From Verrucomicrobiota bacterium (GTDB taxonomy: Bacteria; Verrucomicrobiota; Verrucomicrobiia; Opitutales; Coraliomargaritaceae): a stretch of DNA of 64,000 nucleotides. Within the stretch, counting starts at the first letter, position 1. Every line of letters begins with the position of its first letter. Location: assembly GCA_039815375.1 (NCBI GenBank), contig JBCBZJ010000005.1, forward strand, positions 82,337-146,336. Direction: 5' to 3'. Of the stretch, positions 61,678-64,000 are shown in pieces. The notes beneath the pieces are model-generated. The model saw only the letters and a list, made by a program, of their open reading frames with translations, searched no databases and was not told the origin of the DNA. The position numbers and the translations under genes are program-made.

Positions 61678-61783
61678 ATCGAACGGTGAGGCTAGCCGCT
61701 CCTAGCCTGATAGTTTTGATATTCAAGGGATTGTCGAATTTTGAAGGTGCGTAACTGGTATTGTCTATGCCGACTAGTTCAGG
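61678..61783 (-). repeat. attC site (long family, 106 bp)
   Basis: CCTGAAC-tagtc-GGC(A)TA...TAGCC-tcacc-GTTCGAT: R box, 5-nt spacer, L box with an extrahelical base. Confidence 0.85.
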
Positions 61784-62158
61784 ATTCAACCGTTCTGGTG
61801 ATTTAGCTCTGAGCAAGTCTCTGATGCTGACTTTTCCAGCAGAGCCGGGAACCGCTTATCTCCGCTAACATACGCTTATGCTCTCCTCGTATAGTTTTCT
61901 GTTTTTTCGTCGTAGTGGGTTAGCGTCAATTAGCGGTTAAAAAATACGTCGGATTGCTAGTTCAGGATTCAACTGTGCTGGTGGTTTAGCTATGGGCAAG
62001 TCTCTGATACTGACTTTTCCAGCAGAGCTGGGAACCACTTATCTCCGCTAATATACGCTTATGCTCTCCTCGTATAGTTTTCTGTTTTCGTCGTAGTGGA
62101 TTCGCGTCAATTCGCGTTCATTAGCGGTTAAAAAATACGTCTGATTGCTCTCCTGAAC
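61777..62158 (-). repeat. ORF-less cassette made of two tandem units (~183 and ~192 bp)
   Basis: Plus-strand GTTCAGGA at 61777 and 61960; cassette core at 62158-62152. Confidence 0.9.
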
Positions 62159-62208
62159 GTCAAAGCGTGGCGGCTGCGTTAGCCGTTGCCACCACCACCT
62201 TATTCGCT
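62152..62208 (-). repeat. attC site (57 bp)
   Basis: AGCGAAT-aaggt-GGT(G)GTGGC...GCCACGCT-ttgac-GTTCAGG. Confidence 0.85.
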
Positions 62209-62736
62209 GTTGGTTATGCCGTAGAATTCAGTAGTGTGAAATCGCCCATCTTTGAAGATGTGATCTGCGAAGCTCCCTTCGTGTTTCATTCCGCACTTTT
62301 GCATTACTTTTCCTGAAGCCAGATTCTCTTTCATGTGATTCGCTTCTATCCTGCGGCATTTCAATTCTTTGAAGCCGTATTCGATAACTGCGTTCGCTGC
62401 TTCGGTGCAAAATCCTCTACCCCAGAAAGGAGTTCCGATCCAGTAGCCTAGGGTTCCTCTTTTGTGAGAGGGGTTGAAATCCAGCCCAACGGCACCAATA
62501 AGCTGACTGCCTTCTCTCGTCTCTATAGCGAGTGTTATGCCTTCTTGGTGGTAGAACTGTTTTGAATGTGTCGAAATCCACTGTTCCGCCATCCCATCCA
62601 GATAAGGATGGGGAACGAGAAGTGTGGTCTTTGCTACTTCTGGAGCTCCCGCTAGTTCTTGAACACGGTCAGAGTCTTCGATTCTGAATGCTCTAAGGAC
62701 TAATCGCTTTGTCTTTATTCTAGGGAAGTGCTTCAT
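62200..62736 (-). CDS. GNAT acetyltransferase, RimJ/RimL family (cassette)
   Basis: IKTKRLVLRAF, LGYWIG..FWGRG and NLASGKVMQKCGM motifs. Confidence 0.93.
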   Translation of the reverse strand: MKHFPRIKTKRLVLRAFRIEDSDRVQELAGAPEVAKTTLLVPHPYLDGMAEQWISTHSKQFYHQEGITLAIETREGSQLIGAVGLDFNPSHKRGTLGYWIGTPFWGRGFCTEAANAVIEYGFKELKCRRIEANHMKENLASGKVMQKCGMKHEGSFADHIFKDGRFHTTEFYGITNSE

Positions 62737-62742
62737 TTTATT

Positions 62743-62817
62743 AGCGAATGTAAATGGATTGCGCGGAAAGTAGCGCGGCAGCGCTACTCGGAGTTGTCAT
62801 CTCCCATCTGGTTCACC
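62743..62817 (-). repeat. attC site (core reads ATT)
   Basis: GGTGAAC-cagat-GGGAGATGACAACTCCGAGTAGCGCTGCCGCGCTAC...ATTCGCT. Confidence 0.8.
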
Positions 62818-63479
62818 CTTATTTTTGTGAGGAAGTTTCTGACAGGGTTTGAGTTTTGAATTCGAATATCTCCGTAGATTAATCCAACGGAAGGTCCACC
62901 ATCAAGGTTAAGGGCTCGATCAAGATCTGGAATCTCAGAATTCAAGATTATAGCTAAGTCATAGAGGTAAACCTCATTCGTGGTAATTACGAGGGTTCGG
63001 TTATTTTTAGTCCGTCCGATGATCGTTCTTTTTGCTTCTTTTCCTGATCGAGATCGAATGCCAATCTTCCCGCCTGGATCAATGACGAAAGGACCACTCT
63101 GGACAATATCATCATACTCGATTTCCGGAATTCTCTTCCAATGTAGTTCCAGTTCGCCTTCTTCTGTGATGGTTACAAAGCCCGAGAGCCTCGGGTCTTT
63201 TGTGTTGGAAATGTCGACTCCATTTATCCGGAAAAGTCCAACTGGATTCAGGTTTCCGTCAAAATACCCGCCGTTCACGATAAAGCTGTGGTCTTCTTCA
63301 GAATAAAGATCTGTCACAAAGCTTTTTTTCTTTTTCCCGTCAATAAACCCAAAACCACTGTTCTCGAACTCAGAGAATTCGATGACATGGATTCTTATGC
63401 TCCCTCTCTCGATGACATAAGAGCGCTCTGCGTGTGCAAAGCTGTTCAGGAGCACCAAGAGGATTAGAATGTATTTCAT
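62784..63479 (-). CDS. Phosphodiester glycosidase (NAGPA-like) family secreted protein (cassette)
   Basis: Signal peptide; VNGGYF, QSGP, RTIIG and ALNLDGGPS motifs; flanked by GTTCACC and GGTGAAC. Confidence 0.85.
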   Translation of the reverse strand: MKYILILLVLLNSFAHAERSYVIERGSIRIHVIEFSEFENSGFGFIDGKKKKSFVTDLYSEEDHSFIVNGGYFDGNLNPVGLFRINGVDISNTKDPRLSGFVTITEEGELELHWKRIPEIEYDDIVQSGPFVIDPGGKIGIRSRSGKEAKRTIIGRTKNNRTLVITTNEVYLYDLAIILNSEIPDLDRALNLDGGPSVGLIYGDIRIQNSNPVRNFLTKIRVNQMGDDNSE

Positions 63480-63485
63480 TCTTTT

Positions 63486-63591
63486 GGTGAACGTAAAGGC
63501 TAGGTTATCCCAGCCTATTAGTTGTGATATTCAAGTGATTATCGAATTTTGAAGGTGCGTAACTGGTATTGTTTACGCCGACTGGTTCAGG
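63486..63591 (-). repeat. attC site (long family, 106 bp)
   Basis: CCTGAAC-cagtc-GGC(G)TA...TAGCC-tttac-GTTCACC; paralog of 61678-61783. Confidence 0.85.
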
Positions 63592-64000
63592 ATTTAACTG
63601 TGCTGGTGGTTTAGCTCTGAGCAAGTCTTCTGATGCTGACTTTTCCGGCAGAGCCGGGAACCGCTTATCTCCGCTAACATACGCTTATGCTCTCCTCGTA
63701 TAGTTTTCTGTTTTCGCCGTAATGGATTCGCGTCAATTCGCGTTCATTAGCGGTTAAAAAATACGTCGATTTGCTGGTTCAGGATTCAACCGTTCTGGTG
63801 GTTTAGCTCTGAGCAAGTCTCTGATGCTGACTTTTCCAGCAGAGCCGGGAACCGCTTATCTCCGCTAACATACGCTTATATTCTCTTCGTTTAGTTTTCT
63901 GTTTTTTCGTCGTAGTGGGTTAGCGTCAATTAGCGGTTAAAAAATACGTCGGATTGCTAGTTCAGGATTCAACTGTGCTGGTGGTTTAGCTATGGGCAAG
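63585..64000 (-). repeat. Second ORF-less cassette with at least 3 tandem units (truncated by the window end)
   Basis: Plus-strand GTTCAGGA at 63585, 63777 and 63960 (periods 192 and 183). Confidence 0.9.

Follow-up and report, generated by a model that had tools for sequence, protein, structure and literature searches.

The window analysed here is a 64,000-bp stretch, the last 64 kb of contig JBCBZJ010000005.1 (C12 below) in assembly GCA_039815375.1 of a Verrucomicrobiota bacterium of the family Coraliomargaritaceae, and its final base is the last base of the contig (146336 of 146336). Close to this end lie two integron cassettes that carry no normal gene and whose bodies are tandem copies of a unit of about 190 bp, which we relate to repeats that bracket genes of the GxxExxY family (TIGR04256). 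The genome is referred to as G000 and its contigs by C numbers; G and L numbers denote the other genomes and the loci compared. The two cassettes are embedded in a minus-strand series of short genes (two GNATs, a NAGPA-family protein, an SASA esterase and proteins without assignment), and attC-like stretches, read by eye, lie between those genes. The end of the window is laid out as follows.

61156..61678, minus strand: downstream cassette encoding a 170-aa protein without a Pfam match
61678..61783, minus strand: attC of the left cassette (R'' CCTGAAC, 5-nt spacer, L'' with one extra base, then L', 5-nt spacer and R' G|TTCGAT)
61774..61956, minus strand: unit L2 ("A", 183 bp, two repeats in the first arm), the final body of the left cassette
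61957..61966, minus strand: body-body junction, where the inverse core and 3 nt of attC are joined at AG to the next body and the remaining attC is absent
61957..62158, minus strand: unit L1 ("B", three repeats), which starts at the cassette core G|TTCAGG at 62158
62019..62031, no strand assigned: 5-bp hairpin beside the second arm of L1, identical to a hairpin that flanks the GxxExxY gene on contig C40
62034..62062, plus strand: second, inverted arm of L1, three repeats
62100..62128, minus strand: first arm of L1, three 10-bp-period repeats, with a six-T run ahead of it on the minus strand
62158..62736, minus strand: adjoining cassette with a GNAT acetyltransferase gene (62200-62736) and an attC-like end
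62751..63486, minus strand: adjoining cassette with a gene for a NAGPA-family phosphodiester glycosidase (62784-63479) and an attC-like end
63486..63591, minus strand: attC of the right cassette, of the same family as 61678-61783
63582..63773, minus strand: unit R1 (192 bp, three repeats), a mosaic of L1-like and L2-like sites
63774..63956, minus strand: unit R2 (183 bp, two repeats), 97% identical to L2, with its junction to R1 at 63774-63783
63957..64000, minus strand: 3' portion of a third unit, which the contig end truncates; identical to 61957-62000

A preliminary description of this DNA had placed five unit starts, a minus-strand core and two 106-bp attC ends here, and all of them recur at the same positions: GTTCAGG at 61777, 61960, 63585, 63777 and 63960, CCTGAAC at 62152-62158, and two attC copies (61678-61783 and 63486-63591) that are 84% identical. 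A Tandem Repeats Finder search returned a period of 183 in the blocks, and all five window units end on the minus strand in TCCTGAAC(C/T)AG, as had been described. That the cassettes lack a normal gene also holds. The longest open reading frames (ORFs) of both blocks span 35-46 aa, each extending into attC, and across 17 copies of the unit in the genome the ATG-initiated ORFs measure 0-55 aa with no frame common to all. The start of the right cassette is indeed not in the window, but it lies beyond the contig itself. The tandems, given as two versus at least three units, are as described, except that the third right-hand unit rests on 44 bp identical to the left block. The last 109 bp (63892-64000), including the final junction, exactly duplicate 61892-62000; the third unit is likely but unproven because its 44 bp are indistinguishable from an assembly-graph overlap.

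Each body consists, in order, of a run of T residues (T-run), an arm of three or two 10-bp-period repeats of the ACCGCT-N-AT type, an AT-rich loop of about 37 nt (27-38 nt in most copies), an inverted arm of three repeats and a 5-bp hairpin. The presumption that arms of this kind accompany GxxExxY genes was borne out on contig C40, where such a gene is bracketed by the same arms and hairpins as the unit core. The same arms surround GxxExxY genes in L016, L031 and L034. At L191 and L206 the T-run arm is the downstream arm of a GxxExxY gene, and at L256 one filled unit lies within an array of empty ones, from which it follows that, relative to the gene, the element in the cassette is antisense. 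Based on these comparisons, the unit core is an empty form, lacking the gene and resembling miniature inverted-repeat transposable elements (MITEs) or REPINs (paired repetitive extragenic palindromic sequences, REPs), of the repeat element found around GxxExxY genes. The preliminary description had named, as a case that would refute its reading, a unit that is a degenerate fragment of a known gene or MITE; this case applies in part, since a MITE/REPIN-like core is what we find, but no coding remnant. A profile of 29 GxxExxY proteins searched against six frames of 17 unit copies gave a best E value of 8, and in the filled elements the gene lies on the opposite strand, which also contradicts a decayed coding fragment. 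We likewise rejected the idea that the wrapper stem mimics attC through its AAC...GTT ends, since GTT reads GTC in many copies.

Arms of this sequence family accompany 6 of the 31 GxxExxY genes in the examined loci, the remainder having other repeats or none. In G000 itself, 35 arm matches were found (3 in a reversed control): 27 in cassette-type bodies, two flanking the C40 gene, two forming one empty doublet on C11, and four alone. Searched more widely in species genomes, the arm-plus-hairpin pattern occurs in at least 120 stretches, and most of the 80 listed are from Opitutales or other Verrucomicrobiota.

Several side observations concern these repeats. The armed GxxExxY gene (C40:55430-56400, L003) apparently lies within a cluster of tRNA-like genes, judged by eye. 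Two further GxxExxY genes of the genome, at C12:33166-33516 and C15:49742-50086, have different short-repeat flanks, so several arm families coexist in one genome. Hairpin-ended empty doublets occur at L024, L049, L053, L063, L064, L069, L080, L083, L087, L091-L095, L099, L111, L113, L119, L131, L138, L139, L144, L145 and L151. Their facing 3-nt linkers pair at a frequency of 0.21 versus 0.33 when shuffled (23 distinct linker sets) and are identical at 0.38 versus 0.21 (0 of 5000 shuffles, with related genomes not independent). This avoidance of Watson-Crick pairing may reflect a recognition rule or the avoidance of perfect palindromes.

The unit has 17 BLAST matches in the genome: eight in tandems (five on C12, three on C38), six in complete single-body cassettes (one each on C4, C11, C28 and C58, and two on C62) and three halves. 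The tandem ORF-less form noted earlier is thus real within the assembly but the minority form. Single bodies begin at GTTCAG, end at CCTGAAC and continue into one of at least three attC types. The window attC family is also found on C4, C28 and C58, and the cassette that follows it differs between the left and right C12 copies, C4 and C28, the switch falling exactly at G|TT; this supports the proposal that ORF-less cassettes re-insert between gene cassettes. Read-derived contigs were taken from the best-covering sequencing run, possibly the source sample, with 21 of 128 pieces listed. In this run, unique cassettes have a depth of 8-14 and most unit bins one of 50-274, consistent with a high copy number; another run, X4, yielded no piece on the units. 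The C38 tandem (C38:14561-15054) comprises three units at a contig end, the last of which stops within its tail, where non-attC DNA begins; read-derived contigs show the same break. At C58:12514-12624 and C33:44899-44989, hybrid cassettes combine the 5' half of an ORF-less body with the 3' end and attC of another cassette, the joint lying within the loop or at its end.

How did the tandems arise? All five assembled junctions have the same structure: the inverse core and 3 nt of attC, after which the body resumes following an AG common to both sides, in agreement with the internal attC-start stubs of the preliminary description. At each, two bodies adjoin and the intervening attC is lost, as in a fused cassette, and the occurrence of five junctions at one position points to a single origin. 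The junction pattern was matched twice in G000; 400 further genomes from the order, of which 33 belong to the family, gave a single, unrelated match. Between two bodies, a full attC is present in G032 (L010), a remnant of ~ 35 bp in G058 (L170) and a 3-nt stub in G000, forming a graded series.

Could the tandem be an assembly artefact of a single cassette present in many copies? The contig ends in the repeat, its terminal 109 bp duplicate the left junction, and the C38 tandem also sits at a contig end. The exact window junctions are spanned by none of the listed read-derived pieces, and the junction lacks a related match in the 400 genomes. However, overlap of single copies could not yield the junction, as only 2 nt are common to the two sides; the assembly holds the junction in three sequence variants; and the left tandem lies inside the contig, between unique cassettes. 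In addition, a separately assembled, read-derived contig of 91 nt (depth 13.9, with unique DNA at 8-14; five differences) covers 63737-63825 with at least 37 letters on each side of such a junction. Its junction variant, inferred from the differences, is not in the assembly, and another tandem unit probably exists, in this genome or in a close strain. A contig of a second study covers gene, attC and body (61585-61905, six differences, depth 3) and ends short of any junction. We regard an artefact as very unlikely and the tandem as a local, mechanistically ordinary event.

Head-to-tail arrays of T-run elements with a period of 155-190 bp also occur outside integrons (L238 in G072, L239-L241 and L199 in G073, and L256 in G068). 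A gene that by eye resembles a glycosyltransferase gene is flanked by two of them, one directly adjoins a GxxExxY gene at its start, and one holds the filled unit. A common origin of the G000 tandem with the G072 and G073 arrays was rejected: the tails are not alignable, with z about 1 or less.

The preliminary description distinguished variants A (183 bp) and B (~ 192 bp) that alternate in a higher-order repeat. The two length classes stand, and correspond to two versus three copies of the 10-bp repeat in the first arm, but an alternation defined by sequence does not. The right 192-bp unit is 93% identical to each of the left units, matching left B at eight and left A at seven diagnostic places. 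When the four-gamete test is applied to the 11 near-complete copies, 37 of the 105 informative site pairs violate it. The unit copies are recombining mosaics and not an ordered A/B repeat, though one may view the right block as the left pair extended by a unit.

Across the family, the unit is matched in 37 of 101 genomes and the T-run arm pattern occurs in 23 of 101, with none in the control; such counts are descriptive, as related genomes are not independent. A complementary core and inverse core surround 16 of 32 evaluable T-run elements versus 4 of 53 hairpin-ended ones, where the T-run misses include internal tandem units and truncated copies, and hairpin-class elements were counted in both orientations (here and in the arm-linker comparison given below with the T-run elements). 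The four hairpin-class matches look like chance: two are in non-attC sequence and two lie 4 nt past the hairpin. Core and inverse core change together (GTTCAGG/CCTGAAC, GATCAGG/CCTGATC and GATATAC/GTATATC). By eye and by this core comparison, the cassette form is found in five of the 20 genera of the family (g1, g10, g14, g15 and g18), all related marine bacteria. Cassette lineages have tails of 51-52, 81 and 121 nt, which are not alignable between lineages. A pattern search of metagenomes found six loci, five in cassette context by eye, with no tandem seen among them, several being cut by contig ends; a search with the tail pattern gave no match.

The linkage to integrons is clearest in the two-contig genome G058, where the unit is the third cassette behind intI of a complete integron and single bodies occur at further places. 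In G000, three intI genes each lie at the end of a contig other than C12, and the arrays are mostly without a linked intI in the assembly. An attI-like motif ahead of the first cassette at the C51 intI also precedes the ORF-less cassette in L105, and looser versions of it occur at L011 and C11.

Do the units serve a function? Along the element, sequence identity across cassette lineages is 0.90 for the T-run, 0.79 and 0.82 for the arms and 0.90 for the hairpin, versus 0.45 for the loop and 0.47 for the 5' flank, figures biased by the fact that elements were found through their arms. The cassettes also keep a fixed orientation (16 sense versus one antisense among 46). One functional explanation, raised in the preliminary description, is a promoter or transcription-modulating cassette whose body drives or damps downstream cassettes, with unit number tuning the strength. 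Gene-less cassettes often act as promoters (10.1101/2023.11.21.568050; PMC8876359), and the fixed orientation, the frequent placement of the unit first after an attI-like site and the scarcity of linked intI in G000 would fit this role. Against it, a sigma-70 consensus scan, of a type reported to be unreliable for gene-less cassettes, found one site, in attC, versus 3.4 in shuffles, and none in any body. TTGACG of the first arm reads TTTACG or otherwise in relatives, and this core is also found flanking genes and in intergenic tandems. A terminator scan found four sites versus 2.4 in shuffles, none within a body. A consensus sigma-70 promoter is not supported, and we consider a promoter cassette unlikely.

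A structured non-coding RNA, also proposed earlier, has less in its favor. As RNA, a single unit forms a more stable fold than its shuffled versions (z -2.83 in sense and -2.12 in antisense), which is expected of any inverted repeat, and cassettes bearing small RNAs exist (sRNA-Xcc1). In 24 aligned cores, compensatory changes affect two of the four predicted pairs of the small hairpin, covariation equally consistent with single-stranded DNA, and none of the 12 predicted pairs of the long stem shows a two-sided change. Rfam gave no match at E values up to 5, the arm linkers of T-run elements pair no more than shuffled partners (0.228 versus 0.256), and neither hairpin has a T-run downstream of it on the same strand. 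We give this explanation very little credence.

Alternatively, in keeping with the protein-binding reading of the preliminary description, the six phased repeats might be a selected dock for GxxExxY or a host DNA-binding protein, the benefit being a decoy, chromosome organization or controlled breakage that gives rise to hybrid cassettes. The one-helical-turn spacing, invariant bases and free linkers suit such a dock, as do the arm conservation and the presence of GxxExxY in 73 of 101 family genomes. Three half copies in G000 break in or at the loop, and two of these are fused to the ends of other cassettes. Nevertheless, binding and cleavage are putative, binding sites would be equally expected in a selfish element, and truncated copies are few, with others breaking in the tail (C38, L051). 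We view a selected dock as quite unlikely. A related scenario is that a selfish GxxExxY repeat element was captured by integrons up to three times in one orientation and spread by integrase, its arms serving in trans as nuclease targets and hence as breakage and fusion points that generate hybrid cassettes of variable length; this, too, seems distinctly improbable.

The explanation that we judge probable, with moderate confidence, is that the units are empty GxxExxY-flanking repeats, passenger DNA multiplied by the integrase, and that the tandems formed by attC deletion between identical cassettes. Insertion by attI x attC recombination can duplicate cassettes. A non-autonomous repeat residing in cassettes would thereby be copied by the integron integrase, presumably with no benefit to the host. 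A single attC deletion at the AG microhomology (2 nt), comparable to known cassette fusions, may have joined two bodies, and units could later have been gained and lost through unequal homologous recombination. The fused multi-unit cassette would still move as one piece via its last attC.

Several points weigh against this explanation. The much better preservation of T-run, arms and hairpin than of loop and 5' flank could reflect selection for function, as could the fixed orientation, and the tail stays at 51-52 nt in one lineage though its sequence drifts. Most gene-less Vibrio cassettes tested had promoter activity not predictable in silico (10.1101/2023.11.21.568050). The listed read-derived contigs include no excised circle or joint, the literature searched yielded no biochemical data on moving or cutting by a GxxExxY protein, and slippage that duplicates a body would leave a junction no different from that of attC deletion. 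For both attCs of the window the best fold is a non-recombining one, the recombination-type fold lying 3.4 kcal/mol (61678-61783) and 5.9 kcal/mol (63486-63591) above the minimum free energy, so present mobility may be low. The R'', L'', L' and R' boxes of these attCs were read by eye, with 6/7 and 5/7 L-box matches.

At the R' end of each of the two attCs lies an inner AAC...GTT hairpin, shorter than the full fold and favored over it. Elsewhere in the array, the attC after the NAGPA gene (62751-62760) ends in ATT, not GTT, and belongs to a family, also at 61123-61186, that is very abundant in the sequencing run (depth 132-337). The non-coding stretches 59312-59765 and 60453-60706 contain attC-like pieces and are possibly decayed cassettes.

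ORF-less cassettes, several per array, are known (PMC2945992; 10.1101/2025.06.18.660453; PMC8876359). The cassettes described here resemble the gene-less cassettes of Vibrio and Treponema and the "empty" cassette of Xanthomonas in having no ORF, a core and attC, and several copies per genome or array. Unlike these, their content is an identifiable repeat element common to GxxExxY loci, with tandem bodies inside. Cassettes are also known to fuse when attC is partly or wholly lost, either because of slippage at its stem-loop or because the integrase acts aberrantly (PMC8876359, section 2.4.4). As in blaOXA-10/aadA1 and blaGES-1/aacA4 (PMC8876359), the upstream attC is mostly deleted and the last attC kept, but the partners here are near-identical non-coding bodies, and fusion can therefore change copy number by recombination.

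REPIN-RAYT systems have GTAG/CGTC-tagged REPs with a cognate gene for an HUH REP-associated tyrosine transposase (RAYT; PMC3733652) and REPINs that form tandem clusters (PMC3116915). Shared features (PMC3116915, PMC8266576) are inverted doublets, singlets, tandem clusters and a small nuclease-like gene with the same flanking repeats. In contrast, the partner gene found here is GxxExxY (TIGR04256) and not an HUH RAYT, for which no search was made, the arms are triple 10-bp repeats, and most copies in this genome are within integron cassettes. REP recognition is compared with that of attC hairpins in PMC8266576. Small non-autonomous repeats are linked to integrons in the integron mobilization unit (IMU) and NFM2-MITE as well (PMC3184786). 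Those flank and move the integron, whereas the repeat here is cassette cargo. In titles and abstracts, with subscription papers mostly unsearched, we found no description of GxxExxY-flanking repeats, of their cassette form or of attC-less tandem ORF-less cassettes. What is new is that these ORF-less and fused cassettes have a cargo traceable to a repeat element.

How ORF-less cassettes originate, and how a cassette of any kind first forms, are open questions. In the present case, a family-wide ORF-less cassette has a cargo that leads back to one particular chromosomal repeat element; filled, empty, tandem and cassette versions of this element coexist, and the attC between twin cassettes can be seen at three stages of loss. 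The findings suggest that some gene-less cassettes are parasites of integrons rather than regulators, and the unit offers a small, testable substrate for the uncharacterised GxxExxY proteins.

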